DNA of 64,000 bases from a virus (Duplodnaviria; Caudoviricetes): IMG/VR virus record IMGVR_UViG_3300045539_000055, positions 176 to 64,175 of that record, one strand, 5' to 3'. Both the position numbers and the translations under genes were made by a program. Positions 1 through 47,100 of the stretch are shown one piece after another. Under the pieces are notes generated by a model. It saw nothing but the letters and a program-made list of their open reading frames with translations. It did not search any database and was not told where the DNA came from. Every line of letters starts with the position of its first letter. Positions within the stretch are counted from its first letter, which is position 1.

Positions 1-1270
1 TTCTACCTGCAAGATACTTACCACTAAAATTAGAAGAAGCAAATTCTATAGCTCCTAATATTTGCCCTGCTGATGTAGGTTCTGTACTATTACTTAATTG
101 TATAGTAGCACCTGCCAAATCAGCTATTGCTAAATTAGGAACTGCTCCTCCAAGAATAGTTGCAAGAAAATTAGTAGTTCCTATTCCTACACTGTTTCTA
201 AAATATCCTTTACCATCAAAATAACCACCCCATCCGTTCCCGGTTTGTGCATCGCCATATACAGCAAAGCCACCCGATGTGAGTACTCTTCCTGCTATTC
301 CGACAGGATTATTAAAAACGGTTTCTGTACTTGTATTATATCCAAACACAGCACAACGACTATCGTAAGAAATCGGACCGGCTAAAGATGCAACAGAGTG
401 TAATTTTGATGTTGGAACAGTTGTTCCTATGCCTACTTTACCTTCTTGGTCAATTCGCATACGTTCAGTAGGAGAGCCACCGGTTTGCTGCGGAGCAGTC
501 ATAAACTTTAATATTCCACCACCTCCATTTCCTGAACTTGCAAAAGTTTGTGATACAGCTTCGATAGCTGCGGTAGCATAAGCAACCGATGCATCATCTT
601 TTCCTGAAAATTGTAATCTACCAAGTACAGAACCGGGTGCTATGTTTGTATCAAGATTTCTTAATTCCATAACACCGCCTGTAACATCTGCAACTACAAG
701 TTTTGGTGTAATACCAAAAGTAGGCGTACCGAAAGTATCTGTACCAACTAACACTTGAGTGTTTCCTACAATAAATATTGGAGAGTCAGAAACCGGAGAT
801 GTAGTTATTTTTCTAAATTCTAAGAAGTTACCACTATGGGAATCTTGACTATAAATTTTAACACCTACTGAAGAACCTGAGTCTGAAAACAAATCTGCAT
901 AATAACATACATTATCAAGAAGATGTGCTTGAACATTGACCCCACCAATAGAACCGGGGGTACTTGATGGGTTTTGACCATTTATTTGAATCAATAATGC
1001 ATCAGGAGAAAATGCAGGTTGTGTTTGATTTGGCAAATTGATTATTACAGGAGCCAATACACCTGTCGAAGTACCGTAGTCAAATGTTTTTGAACCGGTT
1101 ATTGTCTGTGCTCCAACAATTGTTACAAATTGATTTGTAGTTGTAGCAAGAGTGATGATGTCTGACAAAAGAAAATTCTTTGTCATTAACAAATCACTAA
1201 TATCTGTTCCAATAACATAGTCCGACAACTGCGGAGGTGTTGGTTGTGGGTATGTACTAATCTTTGCCAT
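1..1270 (-). CDS. Tail fibre / receptor-binding protein, 5' part (runs off window start)
   Basis: Not in the ORF track. ATG at 1270, MAKISTYPQPTPPQLSDYVIGTD...TKNF. N-terminus is paralogous to 60929..63748; contains ERMRIDQEGKVGIGT and VGIGT fibre repeats. Confidence 0.8.
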   Translation of the reverse strand, partial: MAKISTYPQPTPPQLSDYVIGTDISDLLMTKNFLLSDIITLATTTNQFVTIVGAQTITGSKTFDYGTSTGVLAPVIINLPNQTQPAFSPDALLIQINGQNPSSTPGSIGGVNVQAHLLDNVCYYADLFSDSGSSVGVKIYSQDSHSGNFLEFRKITTSPVSDSPIFIVGNTQVLVGTDTFGTPTFGITPKLVVADVTGGVMELRNLDTNIAPGSVLGRLQFSGKDDASVAYATAAIEAVSQTFASSGNGGGGILKFMTAPQQTGGSPTERMRIDQEGKVGIGTTVPTSKLHSVASLAGPISYDSRCAVFGYNTSTETVFNNPVGIAGRVLTSGGFAVYGDAQTGNGWGGYFDGKGYFRNSVGIGTTNFLATILGGAVPNLAIADLAGATIQLSNSTEPTSAGQILGAIEFASSNFSGKYLAGR

Positions 1271-4232: not shown

Positions 4233-4415
4233 CTAATTTTTATTTATTTTATAAAATGTTTTATTAATCAATAGCTTCGGATTATTCATAGCAGCTTTTC
4301 TATCACTACACCCACAATCTTTTCCTGTTGCTTCCGCAATAGTCTCTACCACATACTTAATTCCTGTAGCGGCAGTTATCTTTTCAATTGTATCTCCGAA
4401 TCCTTGCGATTTCAT
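4233..4415 (-). CDS. Conserved small phage protein (GDTIEK...DCGC..RK)
   Basis: ORF track; recognisable CGC motif. Confidence 0.65.
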   Translation of the reverse strand: MKSQGFGDTIEKITAATGIKYVVETIAEATGKDCGCSDRKAAMNNPKLLINKTFYKINKN

Positions 4416-4427
4416 TTTGTAAAGATA

Positions 4428-4658
4428 TTAATTTTTTTTATTTTTTTGAACAGGCAGTTTGCTGACATTTCCTTTTAGGAATTTCATCTTTCCATCCAAT
4501 GATTTTTTTGACTCGTACTGCTTTGCTTTTTCAATTATCTTTTCTTGCTTTAGCATTTTTGGAGTTGGTTTTTTACCTGAGCCTTTTGCCGCTCTGATAT
4601 TATCATAAAGACCTCTCTGAGATACAGAACCATCTTTTCTTTTTATCATTTCTTTCAT
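4428..4658 (-). CDS. Small basic protein (GLYDNIRAAK motif)
   Basis: ATG at 4658 (or 4649); the track start at 4730 lies inside the structured RNA and is unlikely. Confidence 0.65.
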   Translation of the reverse strand: MKEMIKRKDGSVSQRGLYDNIRAAKGSGKKPTPKMLKQEKIIEKAKQYESKKSLDGKMKFLKGNVSKLPVQKNKKN

Positions 4659-4681
4659 CTCTAATAGTTTTAAAATATAAA

Positions 4682-4962
4682 AAACCAAGGTCCTAACAAA
4701 AAATCGGGCACGTTTCCGTGGAGCCCCCACTTATAATCTCTAACCTACCCATTAAGTGGGCGATACGGTTTGCTATTATTAAGATAGACAGTTGACTCTT
4801 GTCTAAAGATTTTGTCAGGGTAACTCATTCAAATCACTCAGGTCTTGCAACCTTACGCTACGGGGCGAACCCCATAGTGCCACTAAAGGTCATACAATGA
4901 TTACTTATGCTCATTGCCGACAATTAGTAATGTAATTTTAGCGAATTACTTTACCTTGGTTT
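4682..4962 (-). ncRNA. Candidate ~280-nt multibranched structured ncRNA, family not recognised
   Basis: 10-bp closing helix AAACCAAGGU/ACCUUGGUUU; hairpins CUAUGGGG-UUCG-CCCCGUAG, AGGUU-GCAA-GACCU, CACG-GAAA-CGUG; long-range CCUGACAAAA/UUUUGUUAGG. G-U pairs and tetraloops indicate the minus strand. Confidence 0.75.
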
Positions 4963-4970
4963 ATTTTTTA

Positions 4971-5129
4971 TTAAACAGGACTATGAAAGTCTCTACTTCC
5001 GTGTCCGGCAGGAGTTGCATCAGGTACAATCTCTGTGTCCGGGTTTAACGGAACTTCTTGTACTACTGTGTTCTCTACTGTAGTTTCAGGTGCTGTATCT
5101 TCAGTACCTGTAGTTTTAGCTTTTGCCAT
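4971..5129 (-). CDS. 52-aa acidic/Pro-Thr peptide
   Basis: Manually translated, MAKAKTTGTEDTAPE...NPDTEIVPDATPAGHGSRDFHSPV. Confidence 0.6.
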   Translation of the reverse strand: MAKAKTTGTEDTAPETTVENTVVQEVPLNPDTEIVPDATPAGHGSRDFHSPV

Positions 5130-5147
5130 CTCTACTTAATTTAATGA

Positions 5148-5321
5148 TTAACAATATGGGTTTTTACCACCCATTCCTTTTCCTGAGGCAGCTTTTGTAA
5201 CTTTACGAGTTACGCCATTACCATCAGCTTTGATTTTAAGCGGAGTATTATTTCCACTTGACATAGGCATCTGCATACGAGATGAACCCGGTAAATTCGG
5301 AGTGTCTTTTTCTTTAGCCAT
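5148..5321 (-). CDS. 57-aa basic peptide (MAKEKDTPNLPGSSRMQMPM...)
   Basis: Manually translated; N-terminus paralogous to the next ORF. Confidence 0.7.
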   Translation of the reverse strand: MAKEKDTPNLPGSSRMQMPMSSGNNTPLKIKADGNGVTRKVTKAASGKGMGGKNPYC

Positions 5322-5464
5322 TATTTCTTTTTAATATTTGTTTTTACATTACCTGTTTTTGCAGGTTTTTTTAATGCATTTTTAATAGCAGGTTTATCTG
5401 CTGCCATAGGCATCTTCATTCTTGACGATGCAGGTAATCCCGGTGTTGCTTTTGCTTTTGCCAT
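5321..5464 (-). CDS. 47-aa basic peptide (MAKAKATPGLPASSRMKMPM...)
   Basis: Manually translated; TAATG coupling to the downstream paralogue. Confidence 0.7.
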   Translation of the reverse strand: MAKAKATPGLPASSRMKMPMAADKPAIKNALKKPAKTGNVKTNIKKK

Positions 5465-5762: not shown

Positions 5763-6206
5763 CTATGAATTTTTTGCTTTTCCCTGTTTTACTAATGCTT
5801 TCTTTTCAGCATCAGTCAAAACTTTTTTACTGCCTGATGTTATATTATAGTAGTTTGCATTTTTGTTTCTACGGTCCATTGTATTAGTACTATCTTTTAC
5901 AAAAGAAGTTCTCAAATCCTCTCTACTTTTTTTAGAACCTGAAATAGAAGTTTTGGTAGTCTTTCCTCCTCCATCTACTATAGAAGCATTACTTCTTTTA
6001 TCAGAAGCAGGAATGAATTTTTTCTCGTATGGTTTAGCTTTAGCTACACCATCTTTTACATCCAATCCTGATGGAGTTTTACCTGATTTCTCATTTACAT
6101 CTTGAACTTTTTTTACTTTATTATATCTTGGTGTTAAAGAAAAAGGAGTTTCAGGAGTACTTGCTAACGGAGTATCGGGTCTATTTATTTTTTTAGGGTC
6201 CGGCAT
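5763..6206 (-). CDS. Basic protein with RPDTPLASTPE motif
   Basis: ORF track; shared motif near the N-terminus. Confidence 0.7.
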   Translation of the reverse strand: MPDPKKINRPDTPLASTPETPFSLTPRYNKVKKVQDVNEKSGKTPSGLDVKDGVAKAKPYEKKFIPASDKRSNASIVDGGGKTTKTSISGSKKSREDLRTSFVKDSTNTMDRRNKNANYYNITSGSKKVLTDAEKKALVKQGKAKNS

Positions 6207-6211
6207 AATTT

Positions 6212-6448
6212 CTATTGTTTTGTGTTAGGAATTTCAGGAGCCGGAGCCGGAGCATTTTGAGCCATCTTCATTTGACCTAACATACTAACTTGCTCTATAG
6301 CAGTATTAGCTGTTTGTTCATATTTACTTGCAACTCTTTGCTGAGGCATTCCACCCATTTGCGGTGCAGACTGTAATCCTGAACTAACAGGTTGTGGTTC
6401 CGGTGTAGCCGCTAACGGAGTATCAGGTCTTTGTGCTTGCTGTTTCAT
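6212..6448 (-). CDS. Disordered Pro/Gln protein with RPDTPLAATPEP motif
   Basis: ORF track; shared motif. Confidence 0.7.
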   Translation of the reverse strand: MKQQAQRPDTPLAATPEPQPVSSGLQSAPQMGGMPQQRVASKYEQTANTAIEQVSMLGQMKMAQNAPAPAPEIPNTKQ

Positions 6449-6450
6449 AA

Positions 6451-6753
6451 TTATCTTCTACTAAATAATGGTTCAGGAGTTGGAGCTAATGGAATGTCTC
6501 TGCTTGTAATTTTTTTAACAGCATCTTTTTTTGCACGAGGATTTTCTTCTCCTCTATCGTATAGTCGAGCTACACCTCTTGCGATGTCTCTTCCACCTGT
6601 TCTTTTTTCTTCAGCATTAGCTGCTATTTCTGCTCCTCTCTCTGTACGAGATGCTCTTTTATCCATTCTCTCAGCAACTCTTTCTGCTCTTTCAGGATTC
6701 TTTTCGGATATTCTTCCAAGTCTTTTGTACTGTCCTTTTCTTAAATCAGGCAT
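6451..6753 (-). CDS. Arg-rich protein with C-terminal RDIPLAPTPEP motif
   Basis: ORF track; motif variant at the C-terminus. Confidence 0.7.
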   Translation of the reverse strand: MPDLRKGQYKRLGRISEKNPERAERVAERMDKRASRTERGAEIAANAEEKRTGGRDIARGVARLYDRGEENPRAKKDAVKKITSRDIPLAPTPEPLFSRR

Positions 6754-8195: not shown

Positions 8196-8400
8196 AATTT
8201 TTAGATTCGTCTTTCCAATTTAACCAAAAACCAATAGCAACAATTACATTCATTCCCATTGATGTTACTATCTCAGTCAAGTCCTCATAGATATTTACTG
8301 TTAGGTGTACGTGTCCTACCATCCAAAATGGTATTGATAGGTTACACGCCACCCATATCACAGTAAATCTTATGAACTTTTTAGTCTTCTGCCTGCACAT
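8179..8400 (-). CDS. Small two-TM membrane protein
   Basis: Two hydrophobic stretches. Confidence 0.55.
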   Translation of the reverse strand: MCRQKTKKFIRFTVIWVACNLSIPFWMVGHVHLTVNIYEDLTEIVTSMGMNVIVAIGFWLNWKDESKNYDKRD

Positions 8401-9997
8401 AAGTACGAGCTAACGTAATTATCGCATCAGTACTTAAAATGGTTACAGCTACACTCACTGCATTCTGCAATGCTGAACGTGTTACTTTAAGCGGGTCAAT
8501 TACTCCCATCTTAATCAAGTCTCCAAACTCTCTTGTCTTCAAGTTGTAACCTTGACCTTCAGCTATACCATCTTTGTAAATGTCAGATGCCTTCAGTCCT
8601 GCATTAGCAAGTATCTGCAAGAACGGAGCCATAAGTGCACTCTTTAAAATCATAACTGCTGCATTATACTCAGGACTTTTGTCTCCATCAATCTCTAAAG
8701 CTGCCGATTCTTCAAGCAAAGCCTTTCCTGCACCCGGTAGAATCCCTTCCTCAAGTGCGGAACGTACTGCACAAACAGCATCATCAACCCTGTCGAACAA
8801 CTCTTTTTGCTCCAAATCTGTCTGTCCACCAACGAAAATTACCCCAATTCCACCTGTTAAAGATGCAATTCTCTCCAAAATAAAGTCCCTATCGTTCTTC
8901 TTTGTGGCATTTCTATGGGCATCCCACAGCTGATTTACTCTTTCCAAGATAGCATCTTGGTCTAATCTCAAGTCTGACTTGATGATTACGGTCTTATCCT
9001 TGCTAACAATCACTTTTGCAGCGTGCCCAAGGTCTCCAAAGTTGATAATACTTAGGTCATCCCCGGTCTTCTCACTGAAATAAGTAGCCCCAACACTGAT
9101 AGCGATGTCTTGCATCAGCTCGTGCTGCTTGTACCCGAAGCTCGGAGGAGGAACTGCACATACTTTGATGTTACCTTTCATCACATTTGCCGCCAAACTA
9201 TTAATCAAGTTACCTCCACAAGGAGAAATGATTAGCAACTTCTTACCTTCACTAACAATTGGTTTCAATACGTTCTCAATCTGTAGGATATTTGTAATCT
9301 CCATATCAGCAACCAATACCATAGTGTCTTCAAAGACACACTCGTCTTTCTTTTGGTCGTTCACAAACATAGGACTCAAATAACCCCTGTCGAACTTCAA
9401 ACCTAATGTGGTCTCAGCATAGGTCTCATCGTTTTGACTCTTCTCAACTGTAACAATTCCGGTTTTACCCACATCCTTGTACACCTCAGCAATAATCTTC
9501 CCAATCTCACGGTCATTGTTCGCTGATATACTCGCCACATCTGCCAACATTGTACTCGTAACTCTCTTGCTTCGTCTGCGTAACTTGTCCACCACCTTGT
9601 CGCTGATGTCCACCATACTTCTCAAGACCTCTGTCCGATTCAATTTCTCGTCAATAAGCTCAAGTCCACTAAGAACTAACCCTTCAGTAAGTACAATAGC
9701 GGTAGTAGTACCATCTCCTGCTGCGGTAGCAGTTCTCTCGGCAGCTTCCTTCATCATCTTAACCGCAAGGTTCTCCGATGGGTCCATTAAGTCTATTGAT
9801 TTAGCAACAGTTACACCATCTTTGGTTACAGTAATCCCGTGTGTGTGGTTTGGGGATTCAATTAGCACAGGATTTCCTCCCGGACCCAATGTACTTTTCA
9901 CAGCTTTGGACATTTTCTTAACGCCACTAACTAATTTTTTTCTACCTACTTCCCCAAAACATAAATCTTTTGGAGAATAACCTTGATTTTCTAACAT
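8381..9997 (-). CDS. groEL: Chaperonin GroEL
   Basis: STLGPGG, VTKDGVTVAKSI, AGDGTTTA, ALEEGILPGAG and GVIDPLKVTRSALQNAVS; no GGM tail. Confidence 0.97.
   Translation of the reverse strand: MLENQGYSPKDLCFGEVGRKKLVSGVKKMSKAVKSTLGPGGNPVLIESPNHTHGITVTKDGVTVAKSIDLMDPSENLAVKMMKEAAERTATAAGDGTTTAIVLTEGLVLSGLELIDEKLNRTEVLRSMVDISDKVVDKLRRRSKRVTSTMLADVASISANNDREIGKIIAEVYKDVGKTGIVTVEKSQNDETYAETTLGLKFDRGYLSPMFVNDQKKDECVFEDTMVLVADMEITNILQIENVLKPIVSEGKKLLIISPCGGNLINSLAANVMKGNIKVCAVPPPSFGYKQHELMQDIAISVGATYFSEKTGDDLSIINFGDLGHAAKVIVSKDKTVIIKSDLRLDQDAILERVNQLWDAHRNATKKNDRDFILERIASLTGGIGVIFVGGQTDLEQKELFDRVDDAVCAVRSALEEGILPGAGKALLEESAALEIDGDKSPEYNAAVMILKSALMAPFLQILANAGLKASDIYKDGIAEGQGYNLKTREFGDLIKMGVIDPLKVTRSALQNAVSVAVTILSTDAIITLARTYVQAED
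9324..9339. repeat. 16-bp palindromic repeat copy (inside groEL)
   Basis: GTGTCTTCAAAGACAC; encodes VFEDT. Confidence 0.9.
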
Positions 9998-29537: not shown

Positions 29538-32500
29538 TTATTGACCAAACTTTTTACTTCCAAAACTACCCTTCGATGATTTACTTCCTCCAAATTCTTT
29601 GCCTCCAAACTCTTTTGAGCCAAATCCTTTCTTGTCTTTTGGAACGTAATTATTTATGTCATCCTTAGCATCTCTTTCTTGAGCTTTTTCTAAAGCCTTA
29701 GCTTCTTTTTGGTCAAGATGATTTTCGTACCAATCTGAGCCCTCTCCAAAAGTCTCTTCGTATAACTTAGGGTCGTATCGTTTCATATCTTCTCTATTCT
29801 CATATCCTTGAAGAAGCTCTTTACCTAACTCTCTATCTTCCTTGGCTAATTTTTCATCTCTTGATGTTTGTTTCTTCTTAGCCATTTTTATAGAGCCTCT
29901 GATAGCACCTGCTACTTCAGGAGGTAATATCCCAATATTCGTTAAGAAAGCAGGACCTAATAAAACACCTAATGCTTTTCTGTCTTTTTCAGATATTTCG
30001 TGTTCTTTATTGAAATCATCTTTGTATTTTCCTGTAGCCCATAATTTTATCATTCCAAAGAACTGCATAGCTCTATCAGGAGCTATACCATACATACCAA
30101 GGAATTTTATAAACTCCTCAGGTTTGGCTGAGTACAAAGCTAATCTATCTTCTTCATCCATATCTAAAGCATCTTGAACTCCTGCTAAGAAATTTGCAGC
30201 TCCGGTCTGAACAAGTTTGTCAAGAATAGGTAGTGGAGATAAAATATCCGTAACTACAGATGTAGCTTGACCTTTTAATACACCATCAATTCTTTTATCT
30301 TCTTCGTCATCAGTCTCTCCTTTACCCATCATAGATGCAGCGGCATAACCCGTTAGTATAGTAATTCCTGCTGACATCATTCTAAAAGTAGCCATCTCCG
30401 CTGCATATCCCGCTAAAGACCTTGCAGCAACAATTTTATCTTCTTTTGTTGAAACGCCCCAATACCCTAATGTTGAAAGGTCAGCACCTAATCTTGATGC
30501 TTGATTCATTCTGAAACTTGCAAAAGCCATAAATACTTTAGTAAGCACTTGCTTTCCTGTTTCTTTAGAAGAAAACAAACTTCCTGCTAAATCACTGTCA
30601 GATACGTTTTGCTGTCTATCCACCATTCTTTGAGCATAGTTTGCTGCTGTTTCATTTATTGGATGATTTGAGTAATCAATATTCTTATAATCTTTACCTT
30701 GTTGTTTTAATGACTTCTCATAGTAAGCCTTAAAGGAAGCTCTCGCTACAGCAACATCGGGTCTAACTAAGAATGTTTTTAACCATTTTCTATTTGCCTC
30801 TTCAATAAGCTCCATTGCTTTTTTTGCATTAGAGTTTGCTGCTTCTTCAATTAGTTTATTGATTGATTCAACTTCTGCTTGAGACTCAATACCTCTGTTA
30901 GCGATGGCATATCCTGATTGAGAAATCCAATTGTTAAAATCAGAGTTATAAGATGCTGTTAAACTAAAAGTTCCCGCATTTACCCAAGTGTTCATAGCTA
31001 CCGGAACAAACTGTTTCAATATCTGAGTTGGTCCTCCTAATGCTTGTCCAACACCAAGGGTTGCTATTTTATTTAATCTTCTAACTGCCTTAGAAAGCTC
31101 ATCGTTTGAATAAGGATTTTTGTTTCTTGTGTTAGCAACATACAATTGAACTCTATTCGTAAGTAGTTTTGCATCCTCAGGATTTGGAACTATTTTACTA
31201 AAGCTATCAGAATTTAAAAACGCTTGAACCTGTCTAATTGGGGCTGCGGTTTCAATATCCACAAGTGCATCATACATAGAGTTAGAGTTGTTTCTATCAA
31301 AAGATAAATCAATATAGCTCAACACATCTTTCTTCGCATTCATTGGAAGATTTTTTGTGCCTGTCGTATCTTCTAATACTCCTGTTTTTTTGTTGTATAA
31401 TACACCGTTTGTATTATTTATAAAAGCTGAATCACTATTGGTTAAGTCAACATCTTGAGGAGCACTTTCCATTCTAACATACTTATCAGGAGAGTAGTTT
31501 AAGTCTCTGTCTAAAGTTTTATTATAAACATTAAGAGCTACATCTGATAATCTATCGAATTGGTTATCCCATTGCTTATGCCAAAAATCAATAGCTTCTA
31601 AGTTTATAGCATCAGTATTGTCTTTTATGTCTTGAATATCCGCTGAATTACCAATTACCTTATCATACACCTTTTGGTATAGCTCTGCTTTCTTTTGCTC
31701 TTGTTCGTTTCCTTTTCTTAAAGCTGCGATAGACTGCTCTATTAATCCCTTTCTTCTTCCGAACTCGATTTGCATTTCTTGCTCAGTTCCAATCACATTT
31801 CTAAGCATAAACGCAGCCATACCTCTTTCGGTATTATTCTCTGCTGTATTGAACTTCTGCCCGTTTGGTCTTACATCTTTATTATAAAACTGTTTAACGT
31901 AGTCGTTTATGATATTATTAGATTGCGTTTGTGCGTATGCTTTTTTATTAATCAATTTTGTTAAGCCCATTAAGTCCTGAACTACACCACCACGATTAAA
32001 TCCTTTGAACATTTTTTCAAAAACAATATTTAAGTTGGTAGTTTGTTCTGCGAAAGTTCTACCAAGTTGCTTAGAGAAATATTTTTTAAGCTGAATAGCT
32101 TTTATTCCTTTTCTTAAAACAATCTTAGCGTTTTGGTCTCCTTCGTATATAGATGTAACAGCATCCATAGAAGCTGTTGATTTGTTCTCTATAAAATTAG
32201 CAAGTGCATCAACTGCTGCAAGAGCATTTTGAGTCCTCATCTTGTTTGGGTCCATAGCCATAAACTTAGAGATGATTTCCTTTTCTCTCTTAGTGTATTC
32301 AACATCTTCTCCTGTAAACGCATCTATTCCGCTGTCTATACTGTTTTGTATCATTGCAGAATAAATTTCAAAAGCGGTATTAATAGTGTCTCTTACTATA
32401 CCTTCGTTTTTATCTGTCATTGGTTTATCCTCCTCCAACAGAGCCATCATTTCAGCTTCAGTAAATGTAGAAGCATCTACACCCATCAACTCTTGCAAAT

Positions 32501-35500
32501 CAGCAATTCTTTCAGCTCGAACTATATCTGCTTGAGATTTCTCTTCTACATTAATATATTCAGTGGCATCTTGAATGTTTACTGTATTTGCAAACCTTAC
32601 TTTTTGACCGCTTATTTTAGAGCCATCTACAGCCTCTTTTATCTTAGCTGCCATATCATTATAGACTTCAATACTTTTTACGATTGATGGGTCTAATTTT
32701 CCGAATTTAGAAGCTAAATCACGTAGGTTAGCATCTTTTGTTTTATCACGAGATAAACTTCTGATTTTCTTTCTTAATTTTTGAGCATCAGTTAATTTTT
32801 GAGCATAGTCAGCATTATCATAGACCTTAGTTACATACTCAATAAATCTTCTTGTAGATTTTTCACTAAGTACATTTGTATTTCCTAATCTATTTAAAAT
32901 AGCTTGCTCTTGAATCTTGTTTATTTTGCCTGACTTTCTTAATTCTTTTACTTCTTTTATTAAGGCTTGAGTAGCTTCTTTAATAGCTTTTACAGCATAT
33001 CTACCACCCCTGTCTTGGTCTTTAAGTTGCTTGTTACGTGCAACTCTTTCGGTCATTACTATTTTTCTAATGTCTTTCAATGTTCCAAGAAGTCTTGCTA
33101 CTGATGGAGCTCTTTTCTCTTTAAGACCAAAGTCTTTACGAATCTTACGCACTATAGCCTCTCTCTGTACATCTGTGGCATCTTCATAAACTTTTGACCC
33201 CATAACATAACCCATAACATTATCATAGGTTTTCTCATCACTAACGCCTCGTTTTTTAGATTTTGCTACAATACCCTTAACTTCTTCCAACATTCTGTTG
33301 AATCCCGGAATATCAAACTCAGAAATACCTTCACTTACGTTTTGAGTAGCTTGAGCCACAAGAGTCAATGCCTCGTTTATTTGTTCAGGAGTTACATCTT
33401 GGATTTCAGATACTTGCTGTATAGCATTCTGAAGAGTGATACCTGCGTTCACTAAAGCCTTTAATGTCTTAACTATGACCTTAGCTGTAGCTATAGCCAT
33501 AACTCTTGTTACATCGTTAAGCTCATTAGGGTCTAAGTCTAATGCAGTATCTAATCTATCCAAGAACTCAGATACCTTTTGAAGATTTGTTTTATCAGTG
33601 GTATCTAAATCAAGTAGGCTGTCAATTTCATTTACCTCTTGAGCAGCTTCTCTAATATTTATTCCTTCAGGTTGTAATCCAATGTCTCCTGCATCTTCTT
33701 CGTCAAATTCACTAAATTCTTCAGCAACAAGACCAACTCTCTGAGGACCAAACATTCCTTCTTTGTAGATTTGTTCTACAATTTTTTTAGCACCTTCTTC
33801 ATCTCCTTCTTCACGTAATTTTCTTGCCTGCTCTCTTAAACCTTCTATCTTATCGTTTATTCCTGAGAAATTTACAAATGCATTTTGAGCACGAGTCTCC
33901 ATTGTCATTGCTCTTCTTGCAAGTGGAGAGTACATTCTTGCGTGTACTTGCCAAGCATTCTCTTCTCCTTTAGGTCCAAAAGAATTTCCTAACTCAGCGT
34001 GTCCATAAAAATCGTGAGTAGCACGAAACACATCATTTATTAATAATGGTTTACCGTTAACATCTTTAAATCCTGAATCTCTAAGTAAAGGGTTTTCTTC
34101 TCTTTGTTGAGCTGTAATTGGTTCATTACCAAACTCGGCTTCCGTAGATAGAATAACTAATCGCTTATTATTTCTCAAGTCATCAATCATTTCTTGAGAG
34201 TTAGCATAAGGCTCTGTGTCTTTAAACTCAAATGTATATCCCTCGTTTATTAGCTCTTGATATTGCTCAATAGTTTCTTTAGCCATAGCTGCATAAGCGG
34301 CTTTGACTGTAGGGTCATTTGGATTATTTTCCATTGCAAGAAAAGCATCCTTCAGCCTTTTTAATTTGGCTTCATCTATTTTTCTTGTTCCTGAGTATTT
34401 TGGTCTTTCAGTTCCGAAAACTCTTTTGTAATATCTATCCGCAATTGTCTTAACTGCCGAAAGCGGCTTGTTGAAGAGTCTGTTTCCTGCGACAGGTCCG
34501 GCTGTTTGCTGCTCTGTTGTTGCTTGTCCATTTTCTTGTGTTTGAGTTGTTATTTGTGTCTTTGAAGACACTTTAGGAATTTTTCTATTTAAAATAGTTA
34601 TTGCTTGTTCTTTAGTTAGGTTTACTTTTTTTGTAATACCATCTTTCGCTCTCTTGTCAGGGAATGATATACTATAAGTATCTCCTACTTTAGAGATATA
34701 AGTTTTTTCAGCAATTTGAATAGGAGTTGCAATTCCATTCACATCTGATGTAGCTTTCTCATCTATTGCAGCTATAAAATCTTCAGAAGTCTTAGGTCCT
34801 TCAACAGTTACTGTTTCTGTAGTAGCTACTTCAGGTTGTTCTAATTGAGCTTGAATCTCAGAGTATCTTTGACCATCCTCTGTAGCTAACCATTTTTGCT
34901 CTGTTATATCATCAACTTCTTCTTTAGTTCTTCCCTCAGCCATAAGAGCTTGTCTTTCTTCTCGGAAAGATTCCACTCCTTTATCCATCAAAGCGTTTGC
35001 TTCTTCCTCAAGAGTTACTCTTTGCTCAGTAGTTATTTCTTGCGGTTTCGCATTGATGATAGTTTCTTCGGTAATTCCTTCGGGTTGGGCGTTTCTTTCG
35101 ACCACTTCTTGCAATCCCAAGCCGGTTTGTTCTGTGCGTAGCACGCTTTCATCTGTTGTTTGCTCTTGAATGGCATCTTCTTCTTCGTTTAAAAGGTTAC
35201 TTAATTCATTTTCTGACAACTGAGTACTTGTCTTTTCTTCTATAATAGCTTTCAATTTAGCTCCTGTCTCTTCGTCATTTTTTACACCAAGTGCTGAACG
35301 CAAAAGTCTTCTTGCGGTCATACCCTCAGTCTTCTCAACAAATTGTTCTTTGGTATATCTTACACCATCAATCATATATTGAGCTACTCCTTTCTTAGTT
35401 GTTCCTAAAGTTTTGCTTAGGTCAACTGAAGACTCTTCAGGTGCTAATTCTTTTGTATCTGCAATAACTGCTAACTCTTCGTTTATTTCTTTTATCTTAT

Positions 35501-38396
35501 CTGAATAGATTTCTCTTCTATTTGTTGATGAAGTAAGCTCTTCTTTAGCGGACATCAACTCCATAGTCCTTGCTAAAACAGCAGGCTTAATTTTGTTTTT
35601 GTTTTCTCCTACAGACAAAGCCTCTCTTGCATCTCTTTTCAATCCTACGTTCTCTTGTATTCTTTGATTGGTATCAGCATCAATTTTACCAAGTTGGTGC
35701 ATATTGTTAGCCCAAGATGATATTCTTGAATCAGAAGCAGATTCTGTACCTACAAAACTTGCATCAGTAAGTTTGTTTGCTATTTCTATGTTTGAGTTGT
35801 TTTTAATCCCTCTGTAGGTATTAATAGCCATATTGGAACTGTTATTTCCTATACCTCCTAATGCCTCAGCAGAAATCTCTTTCCAATTAATTTCCTGACC
35901 TGAGTTCATTTGTGCGGCAAGTTCTCCCGTAGCTTCTGCTAAAGGGTCAAATACAGCACGCTCAGCTATCTGAGTACCTACTTTTCTTGTTGTACTTGCA
36001 AGTACACTTGTTGGTTTAAATACTTTACCTGCAAGACCTGCTGATAAATAATCAACTATTGCAATTGGAATACCTCTTTCAAAACCTCTTTTTCCACCTT
36101 CATCCCAAACAGTGTCATCACTAAGAGCTTCTGCAACTTGATTAGGGTCATTTACATCATAACCTCTTTCTCTCATCACATCAAGTACTGAGTTGGTATA
36201 TTCCATAGCTAAACTTGTAGCAGCCATACCTGTTCTAAAACCTTGAACACCTCCCGCAATAGCTCCTCCCGGAGTAGATACTATACCTGTCGGACCTGCA
36301 AGAAAACCTGTTGCTCCAATAGCTGCACCTGTACCGGCTCCTGCCGCTGTAGTACCCGCTACTATCTTCATCCCATAAGGTAATATTTGACTAAGACTTG
36401 TTCCTGCCATAGTCAAAGCCAATTCAAATGGATTATCTAAGAACACATCGAATCCTTCGCTAAATCCTGAGGCTTGTTGCCAACGAGACATAACTCTACT
36501 CTGTTTTCCTGATTGATTAGTTAGATTATCAACAATAATTCGAGAAGCCTCTTCTTTATCTGTTTTGCTATTTACATCTTTTATTCCTAAAGCAAAAGCT
36601 AATATCTGCTGTGCGGCATTTCCATTCTTATAGGCATCGCTTACAGAGTTAGAGAATCCTGACCAATTGTCTTCAAAATCTCCTTGTATTTGTTTATTTG
36701 CCTTGGCATCAAAATAAGTCTTAGCATCCTCGTATTTTTTTGCAGCGTAGTTTTGAGTTAATTTTAAATCTTCATAGTTTTTAACTAACTCATTTTTTAA
36801 AGCCAAATCAGCAGAGTTCTTAGGAACTACCGTAGATATTTTGTCAATAGAAACTCCAAATGAATTTAAAGATTGCACATCAATATCTTCTTTCTTTTTC
36901 TTTGCTTCTGCATTTATTTTCGCAGCTTCTTGTGCTACTACTTTTGATTTTTTATCTAAATAAAGGTCAAAGTCTTCTCTTGCTTTTTCAACTTTTCCTT
37001 CAGTAATAAATCCTGAATCAAAAACTTGACCTCGCAATGCTTCTTCTTGCTTCTTGTACTTTGCTATTAATTTGTCAGTATCTGAACGCATTTTACCATT
37101 AACCACAAGGTTAGGGTATTTTTTTGCCTCAGGACCTCCTCCATATCCTTCTTCTAAGAAGTCAACCATATCTCTAACCTTGATGTACTCATCGTATGTC
37201 TTTTTATTAGACATATAGTCAACACCACGAGCTTTGTAGAACTTATCAGCTTCTACATCGATTGGGTTTACATCTTTCCAAGAGCCTTTAGCAAAAGCCT
37301 TTGCTTCTTTATCTGTGTTGAAGTCAAAAACTTCTCCTCTTTCTCTTGCTCTTTTAATGGCTTCTTTAAATGGAAGTTCTTCCCAAGTTTTTGGGTCCGA
37401 AGAATAATTGTTTGGGTCTTTAGGAAATAAAGTAGGTATAACTTTGTATTTACCATCTTCTTCAAAAGAGGTAAACTTAACAGTAGATAAAGTTCCATCA
37501 GGATTCAATCTACCATTTTTACGAAGTTTTTGTGCTTGAACTGATTTCGTTAATAAATCTCCTGTTATAGGTGCGTTTACAGGAACAGCGTTATCGTTTA
37601 TAAAGGATTTTAATTTATTTGATTCTTCTGAATTTATTTCAGAAATGTTTTGTAAATTAATCTCTATAGACTTTTTCCCATCTAAAGTTTTGGCAATAAT
37701 CTTGTCAGTACCAAAACCGGTTTCTTCAAAGTTAATACCAAACTTAGAAAACTTAGTTCTTAATGTAACTATAGCATCTTCTTCAGTTTTTGATATAAGA
37801 TTAGCATCTATTGCATTAAGAGATTTCAAGAACTCAGGAGCTGATTTTAAGCCCTTGTTTATAGCCTTTTTTTCTTTCTGTTGATTAGCTTCTTCTACAG
37901 CCTCTATCCCTTGTCTTCTTTTGGTTTCCTTAGAGATTGCTACAGCTTCTTTGAATTTTTTCTGTTGCTCTTCAATAAATCTCTCTTGGTCTGTTTTCTT
38001 GAAGTTTACACCTTTTAAATCAGCCGCAGTAAAGGTTTTCATTTGAGGCATTGCCTCTCTTACCTCATCTCCAAAAGTTGAGGCTGTTCTTTTAGTAGGA
38101 GTAGTAGCCGATGAACCATCTTCCGAAGACGAACCCGTAGTAATTTTTTGGTCCTTTTGAGGCGTGCCTGATACCGAAAAAACTTTTTTTTTTGAAGCAA
38201 CAGCTTGCCCACTAACACCCATTAATGTTTTGTAATCGTCAATGGTTTTAGTATATCCATCATTTACAAATGCATCATAAGAATCCTTTAGTGCATTTGG
38301 ATTTGTGGCTAATAATTTTTTATATTCTTCAAGGCTTTTAGTATATCCTTGAGAAACAAATAAATCATACGAGTCTTGGATTGCTTGTTCGTTCAT
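29538..38396 (-). CDS. Giant internal virion / DNA ejection protein (polyvalent-type), 2952 aa
   Basis: Last of three helical genes after the tail module; Gly/Ala hydrophobic segment; HDFYGH-motif domain; no DxDxD RNA polymerase motif seen. Confidence 0.75.
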   Translation of the reverse strand: MNEQAIQDSYDLFVSQGYTKSLEEYKKLLATNPNALKDSYDAFVNDGYTKTIDDYKTLMGVSGQAVASKKKVFSVSGTPQKDQKITTGSSSEDGSSATTPTKRTASTFGDEVREAMPQMKTFTAADLKGVNFKKTDQERFIEEQQKKFKEAVAISKETKRRQGIEAVEEANQQKEKKAINKGLKSAPEFLKSLNAIDANLISKTEEDAIVTLRTKFSKFGINFEETGFGTDKIIAKTLDGKKSIEINLQNISEINSEESNKLKSFINDNAVPVNAPITGDLLTKSVQAQKLRKNGRLNPDGTLSTVKFTSFEEDGKYKVIPTLFPKDPNNYSSDPKTWEELPFKEAIKRARERGEVFDFNTDKEAKAFAKGSWKDVNPIDVEADKFYKARGVDYMSNKKTYDEYIKVRDMVDFLEEGYGGGPEAKKYPNLVVNGKMRSDTDKLIAKYKKQEEALRGQVFDSGFITEGKVEKAREDFDLYLDKKSKVVAQEAAKINAEAKKKKEDIDVQSLNSFGVSIDKISTVVPKNSADLALKNELVKNYEDLKLTQNYAAKKYEDAKTYFDAKANKQIQGDFEDNWSGFSNSVSDAYKNGNAAQQILAFALGIKDVNSKTDKEEASRIIVDNLTNQSGKQSRVMSRWQQASGFSEGFDVFLDNPFELALTMAGTSLSQILPYGMKIVAGTTAAGAGTGAAIGATGFLAGPTGIVSTPGGAIAGGVQGFRTGMAATSLAMEYTNSVLDVMRERGYDVNDPNQVAEALSDDTVWDEGGKRGFERGIPIAIVDYLSAGLAGKVFKPTSVLASTTRKVGTQIAERAVFDPLAEATGELAAQMNSGQEINWKEISAEALGGIGNNSSNMAINTYRGIKNNSNIEIANKLTDASFVGTESASDSRISSWANNMHQLGKIDADTNQRIQENVGLKRDAREALSVGENKNKIKPAVLARTMELMSAKEELTSSTNRREIYSDKIKEINEELAVIADTKELAPEESSVDLSKTLGTTKKGVAQYMIDGVRYTKEQFVEKTEGMTARRLLRSALGVKNDEETGAKLKAIIEEKTSTQLSENELSNLLNEEEDAIQEQTTDESVLRTEQTGLGLQEVVERNAQPEGITEETIINAKPQEITTEQRVTLEEEANALMDKGVESFREERQALMAEGRTKEEVDDITEQKWLATEDGQRYSEIQAQLEQPEVATTETVTVEGPKTSEDFIAAIDEKATSDVNGIATPIQIAEKTYISKVGDTYSISFPDKRAKDGITKKVNLTKEQAITILNRKIPKVSSKTQITTQTQENGQATTEQQTAGPVAGNRLFNKPLSAVKTIADRYYKRVFGTERPKYSGTRKIDEAKLKRLKDAFLAMENNPNDPTVKAAYAAMAKETIEQYQELINEGYTFEFKDTEPYANSQEMIDDLRNNKRLVILSTEAEFGNEPITAQQREENPLLRDSGFKDVNGKPLLINDVFRATHDFYGHAELGNSFGPKGEENAWQVHARMYSPLARRAMTMETRAQNAFVNFSGINDKIEGLREQARKLREEGDEEGAKKIVEQIYKEGMFGPQRVGLVAEEFSEFDEEDAGDIGLQPEGINIREAAQEVNEIDSLLDLDTTDKTNLQKVSEFLDRLDTALDLDPNELNDVTRVMAIATAKVIVKTLKALVNAGITLQNAIQQVSEIQDVTPEQINEALTLVAQATQNVSEGISEFDIPGFNRMLEEVKGIVAKSKKRGVSDEKTYDNVMGYVMGSKVYEDATDVQREAIVRKIRKDFGLKEKRAPSVARLLGTLKDIRKIVMTERVARNKQLKDQDRGGRYAVKAIKEATQALIKEVKELRKSGKINKIQEQAILNRLGNTNVLSEKSTRRFIEYVTKVYDNADYAQKLTDAQKLRKKIRSLSRDKTKDANLRDLASKFGKLDPSIVKSIEVYNDMAAKIKEAVDGSKISGQKVRFANTVNIQDATEYINVEEKSQADIVRAERIADLQELMGVDASTFTEAEMMALLEEDKPMTDKNEGIVRDTINTAFEIYSAMIQNSIDSGIDAFTGEDVEYTKREKEIISKFMAMDPNKMRTQNALAAVDALANFIENKSTASMDAVTSIYEGDQNAKIVLRKGIKAIQLKKYFSKQLGRTFAEQTTNLNIVFEKMFKGFNRGGVVQDLMGLTKLINKKAYAQTQSNNIINDYVKQFYNKDVRPNGQKFNTAENNTERGMAAFMLRNVIGTEQEMQIEFGRRKGLIEQSIAALRKGNEQEQKKAELYQKVYDKVIGNSADIQDIKDNTDAINLEAIDFWHKQWDNQFDRLSDVALNVYNKTLDRDLNYSPDKYVRMESAPQDVDLTNSDSAFINNTNGVLYNKKTGVLEDTTGTKNLPMNAKKDVLSYIDLSFDRNNSNSMYDALVDIETAAPIRQVQAFLNSDSFSKIVPNPEDAKLLTNRVQLYVANTRNKNPYSNDELSKAVRRLNKIATLGVGQALGGPTQILKQFVPVAMNTWVNAGTFSLTASYNSDFNNWISQSGYAIANRGIESQAEVESINKLIEEAANSNAKKAMELIEEANRKWLKTFLVRPDVAVARASFKAYYEKSLKQQGKDYKNIDYSNHPINETAANYAQRMVDRQQNVSDSDLAGSLFSSKETGKQVLTKVFMAFASFRMNQASRLGADLSTLGYWGVSTKEDKIVAARSLAGYAAEMATFRMMSAGITILTGYAAASMMGKGETDDEEDKRIDGVLKGQATSVVTDILSPLPILDKLVQTGAANFLAGVQDALDMDEEDRLALYSAKPEEFIKFLGMYGIAPDRAMQFFGMIKLWATGKYKDDFNKEHEISEKDRKALGVLLGPAFLTNIGILPPEVAGAIRGSIKMAKKKQTSRDEKLAKEDRELGKELLQGYENREDMKRYDPKLYEETFGEGSDWYENHLDQKEAKALEKAQERDAKDDINNYVPKDKKGFGSKEFGGKEFGGSKSSKGSFGSKKFGQ
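34556..34571. repeat. 16-bp palindromic repeat copy (inside ejection gene)
   Basis: GTGTCTTTGAAGACAC; encodes VSSKT. Confidence 0.9.
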
Positions 38397-44196: not shown

Positions 44197-47100
44197 TTAT
44201 GTTACACAGTCGCATAGGACATTTGTAATAGTTATACTTGTTTCAGCGTAAGGCTTTCCAATAGAACAATACACCACTCCTACTGCCGAAGCTAATAAAG
44301 GTAAACTTGACAGTATTCCTTGCTCGTTATAGAAGTAAATTGTTGTGTCAAAAGTCTCATTATTGGTTACTTCATAATAATTATATGGTGTTGTACACGT
44401 TAAATCACAATTACAACATACATCTACAGCACTTGTTCCAAAACACAAAGATACTTCAACGCCACAAGAATTACAAGGTTGTTGTGGGAGTAAAACTCCA
44501 TCTACTAACTCTCTCATAACGCCTCCTGTAGAATACATTCCATCGGGAGCTACATTTGTTAGGTTAATATCTTCAAAAATAGAAGTTGCTGTAGAGAAAG
44601 ATGCATTTAAGTAAACATTTACAAGTACACAATCGCAACATCCGTTTCCAATTGCTTCTCCTGAATAACATAGTTCAGCCGGTATAGCATCTCTTAAATC
44701 CCAAATTAAATAAAGGTACTCTCCAAGTGAACTTGCAGGAACTGTAAAGTCTGCATAATACAATGGAGCTGAGCCTGAATTAGGAGTAGCAACCGTAGAA
44801 GCTATCAATAATGCATTCATATCTACATTGGTATTATTGTACAACGTAGAACTTCTAAAGTATCTAAATTTGTCCTGAGCTATGTCGAATACATAATTAT
44901 CAGGAACAATAGCATTTGTAGCTAATCTCATAGTACTTCCCTCAGGAGGGAATCCACCTGACCCTACAAATCCTGATACGGTATTGTATCTTGATATAAG
45001 AGGACTTCCTGTTCCACCTGAGAATAAAACCAAGTTTTGAAGAAGTGGTCCTATGAAAGCTCCATCAGTATATCTATATTGAGTATGTATAGTACTTCCT
45101 GACTCTGAATCGTTTGTTACAACAACCTCAACAATAGTCATTGGCTCAGCTTGACAGCAATCTGCAAGTATATCCACAACCATATCTCCCGTATAGGTTA
45201 GAGTGATTTCTGCTGTTTCAATTAAAATGTTATTCTTATCAAAGAAAATACTTCCATCTACATTTGTTGCTCCTGATGTTACAACAGTTCCGTTATAATC
45301 AACACTCACAGTAAGTGTTTTGCCTACTTCTATATCTGAGAACACCCAAGCAATCTCAGAGATGCCTACAAGAGGACCTAAGTCAACACAATACACGAAA
45401 GTTTTTGAAACTTCTGTATCAACGGATAATGTAAATGTTTGACTGATTCCACAATTTAAACATTGAGCATTTATTGGCAATTGTTGGTCATTCATTGCTA
45501 ACACATACTCATTCATATAAGGGTCAAAACCTCCAAGTTTTTGGAAATTAAAAGATGCGTTAAATTTATCTCTAAACCACGTTCTCATACTTTGTTCAGA
45601 TATAGCTACTAACTGCTCGCTTTGGCTATCTCCTCCTTTTAATTGAAGAACTGCTCCACGTTTTGCATCAGCGAAAAATCTATCAAATCCCCATTGAACA
45701 TAACTCTCAGGATTAAAACTAATGCCATACTTTTCAGTACGTGCTATTTGTGTTCCTAAGACCTCAGGAGTAGCTGTAATGATACCACCGGCACTTGCAT
45801 CCGACAGTAAGTTTTTCTCAGCTAAAACGTAAGATATTTTATCTTCTTGTAAAGTAAGAATATCTGTGTTTCTTCCATCTAATAATTGGATTGGTCCAAA
45901 TGAAGATTCGCAATGCTTAAAGTTTGATAAACCTGAGTTGAACTCATTTAGCTTATTTATATTTGACTCTCCATTGTAAACGCCACTATATGTAATATCT
46001 GAAAACCTATCAGCAGATTTGTAATCTTGAGCAGCAACTGTAGTTACTCTTTCTCCAAAATTAAAAGACCTTCCTATAATAGAATCACGTATTTTATAGC
46101 TTTCAGCACCATTTCCAAAAGAGTAACAGTTAAAAAACTGAGTGTCAATTATAGCAGGAGTTCCTGTTGAAATGTTTTGATTTTGAATATTTCCTGCGTG
46201 GTTTCCATCTATGTCAATAGGGAAAGATAATTCATTCTCAAAAAATACATCAGGTAATGAGTCAGAAGGTTCTGTTTCAAATATGATTGTATTTTCTGCA
46301 CGATACACTTCAATGTTTGCAGTAATATAAATTCTACGAGAATATTTATAGTTTTTACCTGTACAACTATTTGTACTACTCCAACTAATAGTAAGTTGAT
46401 TAGTAGTTGGATTTCTATAAAATTGCCAATAATTTATATCTGTAGATACGTTAGTTAATTGAGTAGATGTACCCGGAACAAACTCATTTGTCTCTCCATC
46501 TCCTTTATCAATACCTGAATTTATAGTAAGTTGAATATTGTCTCCAACAAACCACTCATACATATTATCATAGTCTGATGTAGAAGTATAAACTTTTTCT
46601 AAAGTATAACCTCTTGGTTCACAAGCTCCCGCTACACCGGCTCTATTCCAATCTACATACCAATTTATTCTACTTCCGGCAGGTACATTGTAATCAATAT
46701 ACATACCCGGATTTGCAGGGTCTGCAATATTCATAGGATAAGTTAATATAAAATGGTCTCCTCCACTTCCCCAACCTTGTAGCTGACCCGGTGCTATAAC
46801 AGCATTTTGAGTTTGTACTAAATTAAAACTATTAGGATTTAACTTTATATATAATCCCGCAGGAACATTAATATTCACTGTAGGGTCTGTATCGCTTGGT
46901 ATCTCAAGAAAACCTTTTGGTTGAGGTTCTTTGTCAAGTACAGTTGTATAAACGCAATTTAAAGTCGGTCCTTGAGTATCTGCCTTAACAATAAGTCTAT
47001 CTCCATTTTCAACTTTTCTCATATTCTCTCCTTCGAGTAAAAGAAATGCTTCATTTGTCTCAGGATTAATGAAAAATAAATTACTGTAAACAGTCTCATA

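Follow-up and report, generated by a model that had tools for sequence, protein, structure and literature searches.

A structured RNA of an uncatalogued family in a variable slot of a podophage late gene cluster

Here, we describe a structured non-coding RNA (ncRNA) on the minus strand of the virus record IMGVR_UViG_3300045539_000055, of which a stretch of 64,000 nucleotides (nt), referred to below as the window, was analysed. The element lies at 4682..4962 (281 nt; match of the covariance model R1 at 4676-4968) and consists of a terminal helix, P1, and two four-way-junction domains inside it, each made of a closing helix with three arms. An earlier note, drawn up from the letters of the sequence, had proposed an ncRNA at this position. 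Its folding energy (z = -4.76) and a fold that is kept with compensatory changes in a diverged copy at a related locus (L054) bear this out, and we consider it very probable that the element is a real structured ncRNA. The RNA represents a new, uncatalogued family, for which three carriers from two lineages are known so far: the window, L054 and a close copy, L086, whose RNA is found identically on the metagenome contig L101. That the element also gives rise to a discrete, stable RNA species is probable. More tentatively, at a rough probability of 0.45, we read it as a stable accessory RNA which is delimited by P1 and the adjoining U tract and which acts in trans, most likely on a protein.

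Fold and conservation of the element

The element is located in an intergenic gap of 315 nt (4656-4970) that reaches from the stop codon of the upstream gene p52 to the ATG of the downstream gene p75. Within this gap no credible open reading frame (ORF) was found; its frames are limited to one of 27 amino acids (aa) that starts with ATG and to an extension of the next gene from a GTG. For the minus strand of 4675-4975, RNAfold yields a minimum free energy (MFE) of -95.7 kcal/mol, compared to -67.9 ± 5.9 kcal/mol for 100 dinucleotide shuffles, none of which equals the native sequence. The plus strand of the same region reaches -74.0 kcal/mol (z = -2.75). This asymmetry between the strands, along with many G-U pairs, fits an RNA that is read off the minus strand.

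Homologues were sought in 80 related loci, which were collected via a neighbouring 160-aa protein and comprise 651,749 bases. In these 80 loci the element was found neither by blastn (word size 7) nor by nhmmer. The covariance model R1, built from the window sequence alone, returned a single full-length match in the 651,749 bases, located at L054:2712-3000 (52.2 bits, E = 1.4e-14). Folded on its own, the L054 copy (z = -4.0) adopts the same layout, comprising P1, P2, P3, P4 with its 10-nt loop, the UUCG hairpin, the GCAA hairpin, P7 and P8. Among the 61 ORF-free gaps of at least 140 nt in the 80 loci, the gap of L054 is moreover the only one that folds as strongly (-0.341 per nt; next -0.284).

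The earlier note had suggested covariation as a check, which we carried out on alignments fitted to the window structure. In the model-guided alignment of window and L054, 95.5% of the cells pair and 30 of the 98 pairs are changed on both sides, versus 1-4 when the partners are slid by 1-3 columns. With L086 as third sequence, 95.6% of the cells pair, and 30 of 98 pairs changed on both sides stand against 1-5 in the slid controls. None of 500 shuffles reaches the covariation level of the real alignment, and RNAalifold reports compensatory changes for 32 of 95 pairs with a covariation term of -12.4. Compensatory changes in homologues, as expected of a structured ncRNA, are thus present across the two lineages.

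The close copy, located at L086:835-1130, emerged from a motif scan and scores 293 bits with R1. It differs from the window by indels of -1 and +4, which exclude a reading frame; a conserved peptide is thereby ruled out, all the more since there is no alignable sequence with L054. Window and L086 are 98.4% identical in the 3' domain and 100% identical in P1 and the spacers, compared to 75.6% for p57, 70.4% for p52 and 76.7% for p75, with large indels. Judged by these identities, the RNA appears to be an optional cassette that is under its own constraint or was recently exchanged.

P1 is formed by the 5' strand AAACCAAGGU (4962-4953), which is preceded by an A-rich run, and the 3' strand ACCUUGGUUU (4691-4682; feature 4679..4691), which enters a U6 tract at 4684-4679. 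The helix comprises 10 bp plus a weak A/U extension contributed by the A-rich and U-rich runs. All ten pairs are kept in L054, five of them changed on both sides, and the 3' strand is there followed by a U10 tract. We propose that P1 and the U tract mark the end or a processing site of the RNA, so that their role as terminator or processing stem is a putative one.

The 5' domain (4820..4949, minus strand) is made up of the long-range helices P2 and P3 and the hairpins P4, P5 and P6, and the same helices are found in L054 when it is folded independently. All helices listed in the earlier note are present in the minus-strand sequence. Two of them, the local hairpins GUAAUU/AAUUAC and GUGAUUU/GAGUUAC, do not represent conserved pairing: in the MFE fold and in L054 their four strands form P2 (GUAAUUCG/UGAGUUAC) and P3 (AAAUUAC/GUGAUUU) instead, and L054 is unable to form the local versions. 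P4 is a long hairpin with a conserved 10-nt loop, GCNURAGUAA, at 4910-4901, and on the same strand UUACUAA/UUAGUGG encloses CAAUGA/UCAUUG. P5 is an 8-bp UUCG hairpin with its loop at 4869-4866, and P6 is a GNRA hairpin whose loop (4848-4845) reads GCAA in the window and GGAA in L086, the GNRA class being kept. Unpaired motifs that are conserved include the P4 loop, the junction sequence GCGUAA and the GNRA loops. In L086, which is otherwise near-identical, the distal part of P5 (~1017-1040, minus strand, corresponding to 4855-4880 of the window) is replaced by an unrelated, A/U-rich and weaker stem-loop, and the base of P5 still pairs via a U-A to C-G swap. From this comparison, the tip of P5 seems dispensable. 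Separately, the conserved P4 loop (..AAGUAAU, 4901-4910) has sequence complementarity to the 5' strand that forms the base of P4 and is likewise conserved (AUUACU, 4924-4931; both minus strand), and L054 keeps this complementarity as GAGUA with UACUU. Through it, the RNA might adopt another fold, or two molecules might pair with each other.

The 3' domain (4692..4819, minus strand) is closed by P7, in which CCUGACAAAA pairs with UUUUGUUAGG (4819-4810/4701-4692), and contains the hairpin P8, a long arm (P9-P11) and a further hairpin, P12-13, whose GAAA loop lies at 4716-4713. The helix UAGACA/UGUCUA is likewise present on the minus strand, and P7 and P8 are kept in L054. For this domain the earlier note had envisaged a pseudoknot or switch, CCCACUUA/UAAGUGGG, at 4760-4753/4733-4726 (feature 4726..4760, minus strand). 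This alternative helix is mutually exclusive with P9-P12 and, when forced in the window, costs 4.7 kcal/mol (-90.9 vs -95.6 kcal/mol). In L054, the MFE fold itself contains the equivalent helix, ACUUAG/UUAGGU, at -100.1 kcal/mol compared to -92.6 kcal/mol with P9-P11 projected from the window, a cost of 7.5 kcal/mol. The core strands ACUUA and UAAGU are thus conserved in both copies, whereas covariation between them is absent. The pseudoknot or switch of the earlier note is supported only in part, and a conformational switch in the 3' domain is possible.

Distribution of the element and search for known families

Around the slot between p52 and p75 the gene order is conserved, and the slot itself is occupied in different ways. 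It holds the RNA alone in the window and in L086; the RNA followed by a gene, p96, in L054 (2672-3303); p96, preceded by a terminator-like hairpin, in L105 and L106 (~1100-1500; p75 97% identical); and a spacer of ~66 nt in L002 and L104, the p75 of L104 being 99% identical. Accordingly, the gene downstream of the RNA varies: L054 has p96 there, and the window and L086 have p75. p96 encodes a conserved, basic, cysteine-bearing protein of 96 aa with a match to part of the profile phrog_220 (positions 526-606; E = 6e-17), which is annotated as 'minor head protein and DNA pilot'. It is present in the slot region of 71 of the 80 loci and absent from the whole window. Of the nine loci without p96, two, L002 and L042, have an empty slot with a flanking gene present on either side, and the other seven end too close to tell. 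The RNA itself was detected in 1 of the 80 syntenic loci of the 160-aa-protein set and in 0 of 80 loci of a second set, fetched with p75. Close relatives with near-identical flanking genes thus do without the RNA, which argues against an essential role in packaging or in the virion. The idea that the RNA replaces p96 was rejected, given that L054 has both and that L002 and L104 have neither in the slot. As a separate observation, the slot (4656-4970 of the window) behaves like a hot spot of cassette exchange, while p75 stays 97-99% identical.

Beyond these loci, blastn with the element and the L054 copy gave no match in 50,697 phage records, nor did megablast with the first 20 kb. An exact 23-mer scan of viral contigs likewise returned 0 matches. 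R1 had no match in 50 related virus records, a result which is uninformative because the record known to hold the L054 copy was also missed; run with filters off on three loci, it gave only matches of at most 11 bits. The motif patterns used for further scans require ~16-22 exact bases from the two lineages, so that more diverged members would be missed. Apart from the carriers named above, the stretches returned by these scans were rejected. In one scan of four stretches, one was the L054 contig and the remaining three (L082, L084, L085) lie within coding sequence, and a scan of three stretches gave the L054 contig, L086 and L087, the last without an R1 match. Another scan gave 12 stretches, of which 10 are new and without an R1 match; nine of these ten lie in frames open for at least 100 codons, the tenth (L097) in one of 78. 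A scan with 91 stretches, approximately the number expected by chance, contained 89 new loci. Here, 77 are in frames open for at least 93 codons and the other 12 have weak folds (MFE per nt -0.12 to -0.29); a GCGTAA motif upstream was seen in none. Finally, four stretches from metagenomes comprised the L054 sequence (L100), the RNA of L086 (L101) and two chance matches (L098, L099), and a single stretch from a genome scan, in a metagenome-assembled genome of Halomonas, was judged by eye to be a chance match at a gene end.

With regard to catalogued RNAs, the 4,227 models of Rfam 15 gave 0 matches in the whole window at gathering thresholds. In E-value mode, the best scores for the element were 13-17 bits, compared to thresholds of 60-91. 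The L054 copy matched other families, none of them in common with the window, at noise level (serC 17.7 bits, threshold 35; HrrF 14.4 bits, threshold 77). The cmscan check put forward in the earlier note therefore leaves the claim of novelty standing. ARAGORN found 0 tRNA or tmRNA genes in the 64,000 bases, and together with Rfam 15 this agrees with the earlier statement that hallmarks of tRNA, tmRNA and group I/II introns are lacking. The reverse transcriptase family PF00078 is absent from the phage genome (controls were positive in 4 of 14 genomes), and no part of the RNA recurs in the window over more than 12 nt; the element is thus not the RNA of a retron or of a diversity-generating retroelement. 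A group I or group II intron was rejected as well, since the element interrupts no gene (p52 stop codon at 4971-4973 upstream, p75 start at 4655) and intron models gave no match up to E = 10. Resemblances to a hammerhead or hairpin ribozyme core are short chance matches in the window which are absent from L054 and have no Rfam match. In the literature, no paper that describes this RNA was found; the supplementary tables of one survey (PMC10690425) may list it.

Proposed mechanism and alternative explanations

Twenty public sequencing runs contain part of 4400-5400, and six of them are on record as RNA. The DNA runs X1-X3 contain all sampled words of this 1,001-nt stretch, and ten further DNA runs from seven studies, labelled as freshwater, lake or aquaculture metagenomes, contain 52-87% of the words. 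The contigs of four RNA runs, from four studies, were aligned to the element, and in each case one contig lies inside it. These are a 269-nt contig corresponding to 4690-4952 without differences (X15), a 254-nt contig corresponding to 4690-4943 without differences (X16), a 244-nt contig corresponding to 4698-4941 with two differences (X17) and a 155-nt contig corresponding to 4700-4854 without differences (X20). One of the two differences in X17 turns a G-C pair of the P5 (UUCG) stem into G-U. In these four runs there are no contigs at least 95% alike on p52 or p75; an uncovered part is no evidence, and we made no use of it. For the transcript that the earlier note had asked for, the contigs of four lake RNA libraries within 4690-4952 are weak evidence of a discrete RNA; from contigs, neither transcription nor the strand nor the ends can be proven. 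Both X15 and X16 end at position 4690 with no loose end there, which is a weak hint at an end of the RNA. Taken as true ends, the contig limits would leave a mature RNA that retains just two bases of P1, both from its 3' strand, with the stagger expected of a double-strand-specific cut; we take this as a lead only. The X15 contig additionally carries six letters past 4690 (~4684-4690) that are not on the window and may be a tail, an adaptor or a variant.

The mechanism we propose is as follows. An RNA gene on the minus strand would be transcribed as part of the late transcript, and the ends of the primary transcript would pair as P1 around the two independently closed four-way-junction domains with their UUCG and GNRA loops. 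P1 together with the 3' U tract would delimit the RNA, serving as a terminator-like end, a double-strand processing stem or the two combined, and a folded core of ~263-281 nt would persist as a stable, free-standing RNA that acts in trans. We favour trans action because the element is an optional cassette in a variable slot and not a core part of the phage. The RNA would then most likely bind a host or phage protein as decoy or scaffold and confer a conditional advantage, e.g. in counter-defence or host takeover. End formation, trans action and protein binding are steps that we infer, and a decoy specifically is an unlikely outcome. The functions put forward in the earlier note (scaffold, ribozyme, packaging RNA, anti-defence decoy) are all hypothetical at this stage. 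Bolder still, the RNA could be the first of a new class of ornate RNAs in phages, cut from the late transcript at its own closing stem and serving as an RNA-only weapon (a decoy for a defence protein) or as an enzyme (a ribozyme), with its 3' domain flipping between P9-P12 and the ACUUA/UAAGU helix; we hold this to be improbable.

Several points weigh against a stable accessory RNA acting in trans. Just two independent lineages are available, and the covariation figures lean towards the window, to whose structure the pair-count alignment was fitted; the independent fold of L054 serves as a control for this bias. The inner fold of the 3' domain at the MFE differs between the lineages. Contigs do not reveal ends, strand or level of an RNA, and DNA can occur in RNA libraries. 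A scan for sigma-70 promoters upstream of the RNA found none, and L054 has a strong canonical terminator (2678-2697 plus a T7 tract; 8-bp stem, GCAA loop; region 2678-2705) ~6 nt before P1 of the RNA. This terminator ends the p52-like gene, and the RNA would thus be made there by read-through or from an unrecognised promoter. No partner protein and no gene that co-occurs with the RNA is known. Moreover, P1 is followed by U6 or U10 and then by a start codon, 27 nt further on in the window and ~20 nt in L054, an arrangement that would also fit a regulatory leader.

Such a leader is the main rival. Here, the element would act in cis on the next small late gene, in the manner of a riboswitch or a protein-binding attenuator: a ligand or protein would stabilise the domains and P1, the U tract would stop transcription, and the terminated leader would accumulate. 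The RNA has the same orientation as the operon, its two-domain architecture recalls tandem aptamers, and short, leader-sized contigs in RNA libraries are equally compatible with this idea. A leader is, however, expected to precede a constant gene, whereas the RNA is followed by p96 in L054 and by p75 in the other two carriers, and relatives with a 97-99% identical p75 do without it. In addition, Rfam aptamers gave no match with E relaxed to 10, a helix that closes ~260 nt is not a canonical terminator, and a terminator scan does not call P1. Overall, we judge the leader to be unlikely, even though it survives best among the alternatives.

Less likely again is a ribozyme or self-processing RNA, possibly a selfish element, which would be excised from the late transcript at the base of P1 and spread by recombination among co-infecting phages. 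Complex multi-junction folds with GNRA loops are typical of catalytic RNAs, and the sporadic, cassette-like distribution, the conservation of the RNA above that of its flanks and the RNA-library contigs at 4690-4952, just inside both P1 strands, could be understood in this way. Contig ends, however, cannot show cleavage sites, no ribozyme or intron family of Rfam matches, and the element interrupts no gene, the p52 stop codon lying upstream of it. Neither an endonuclease nor a reverse transcriptase nor a recombinase is adjacent, PF00078 being absent from the genome altogether.

A structural or assembly RNA, which would partner the portal, as does the packaging RNA (pRNA) of phi29, or the cluster's small basic proteins, or else be packaged in virions, appears very improbable. 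It would suit the late cluster of a podophage with its small, mostly basic proteins and a slot that otherwise holds p96 with its partial match to phrog_220, and pRNAs, too, keep their structure while losing sequence similarity. An essential part would nevertheless be expected in all relatives, as a phi29-type pRNA is throughout its phage group, and the two sets of loci contained the RNA in 1 of 80 and 0 of 80 cases. L002 and L104 contain neither the RNA nor p96 in the slot, L054 contains both, and no pRNA family of Rfam matches.

Hardly credible, finally, is a DNA-level element (an insertion akin to a miniature inverted-repeat transposable element, a cruciform or a recombination site) or a fortuitous structure, as might be suggested by the perfect 10-bp inverted repeat at the ends and the presence/absence polymorphism at one site, since the terminal repeat of L054 differs and yet pairs (with internal helices behaving likewise), the fold is strand-specific with its many G-U pairs, the genome contains no second copy, no direct repeat is seen at the borders, and contigs from RNA libraries match.

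Genomic context and relation to known RNAs

The IMG/VR virus record, of which the window covers almost the full length, comprises 64,175 bp and has direct terminal repeats, and the genome encodes a large terminase, a portal protein, a GroEL-like chaperonin, a holin and an M15 endolysin. Its terminase is 77.7% identical to that of an uncultured spring podovirus (MW202828.1) and 45% identical to those of the Flavobacterium phages vB_FspP_elemo, followed by phages of Cellulophaga, Tenacibaculum and Maribacter. The source, a freshwater phage, is thus a 64-kb podophage related to phages of Flavobacteriia. The chaperonin is full-length (8381-9997, minus strand; PF00118, 5e-58; phrog_5725), and MW202828.1 is annotated with GroEL and a 10-kDa co-chaperonin.

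The element lies within a minus-strand run of small, mostly basic genes just upstream of the holin, in the same direction as the late genes, and its placement in a late small-gene cluster by the earlier note is confirmed by the holin and endolysin beside it. Its further proposal of K/R-rich peptides on both flanks holds for the downstream gene p75 (4428..4655, minus strand; 75 aa from the ATG at 4655), whose product is basic. It fails for the upstream gene p52 (4971..5129, minus strand), which encodes an acidic 52-aa product. In each of the three carriers, the RNA has a p52-like gene ahead of it. The ribonucleoprotein that the earlier note envisaged between the RNA and these peptides is hypothetical, and the downstream neighbour changes with the lineage (p75 in the window, p96 in L054). 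The first ~40 residues of p75 (MKEMIKRKDGSVSQRGLYDNIRAAKG..., 4541-4655) are 74-92% identical in viral contigs of 60 to more than 120 kb (loci L112-L183), and this N-terminal part may be a widespread small phage protein module. Further upstream, three proteins of 147, 78 and 100 aa (5763-6206, 6212-6448 and 6451-6753, minus strand) have a proline-rich motif, (R)PDTPLA-TPEP, in common and look like paralogues; the 147-aa protein (5763-6206), the only one of the three that was scanned, has no match in PHROGs or Pfam. Pfam gave no match (E = 0.001) for two giant ORFs on the minus strand, 29538-38396 (2,952 aa) and 44197-49074 (1,625 aa).

Few structured RNAs of bacteria or phages exceed ~200 nt and have several multi-helix junctions, and those known are mostly ribozymes, riboswitches or parts of ribonucleoproteins, with a few unsolved cases. 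Among these, GOLLD and ROOL are, like the element, phage-borne, multi-junction, ornate RNAs. They were recognised by covariation and environmental data, have no adjacent partner gene, are patchily distributed and are of unknown function. At ~600-800 nt, they are longer than the ~280 nt observed here. Both are in Rfam and neither matches, and the hosts differ, the present phage being of the Flavobacteriia type. GOLLD and ROOL are reported to form homo-oligomeric assemblies (10.1101/2024.12.08.627333).

The element resembles the pRNA of phi29 in being a structured RNA encoded by a podophage, and the failure of blastn and nhmmer to find L054 recalls the pRNA case. The pRNA is essential, occurs in every member of its phage group and keeps its secondary structure while its sequence diverges. 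Unlike phi29, the present phage has a large terminase and direct terminal repeats and not a protein-primed, phi29-type genome. Processing stems of ribosomal RNA and the RNase III sites of T7 provide another parallel, in that the flanks of an RNA pair in a long-range stem, as in P1, just inside of which the contigs end (4952, 4690); they differ in that P1 comprises just 10 bp with a weak A/U extension and in that contig ends are not RNA ends. Tandem-aptamer riboswitches share two multi-helix domains in series and a closing helix by a U tract before a start codon. Here, in contrast, no aptamer matches, the downstream gene varies and close relatives are without the element. Fremin et al. (2023; PMC10690425) mined IMG/VR for conserved intergenic structures, requiring at least three matching regions, and their candidates average 67 nt, compared to ~280 nt here.

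The element is small enough for probing and for structure solution, and its slot is defined and dispensable. Natural relatives with and without the RNA, whose p75 is 97-99% identical, would make a comparison of loss and gain of function straightforward once a host is in hand. Should the element prove to be a leader or a processing signal, it would be an unusually elaborate one. If it is instead an accessory RNA that alters the conflict between host and phage, an RNA-only module would join the phage morons.

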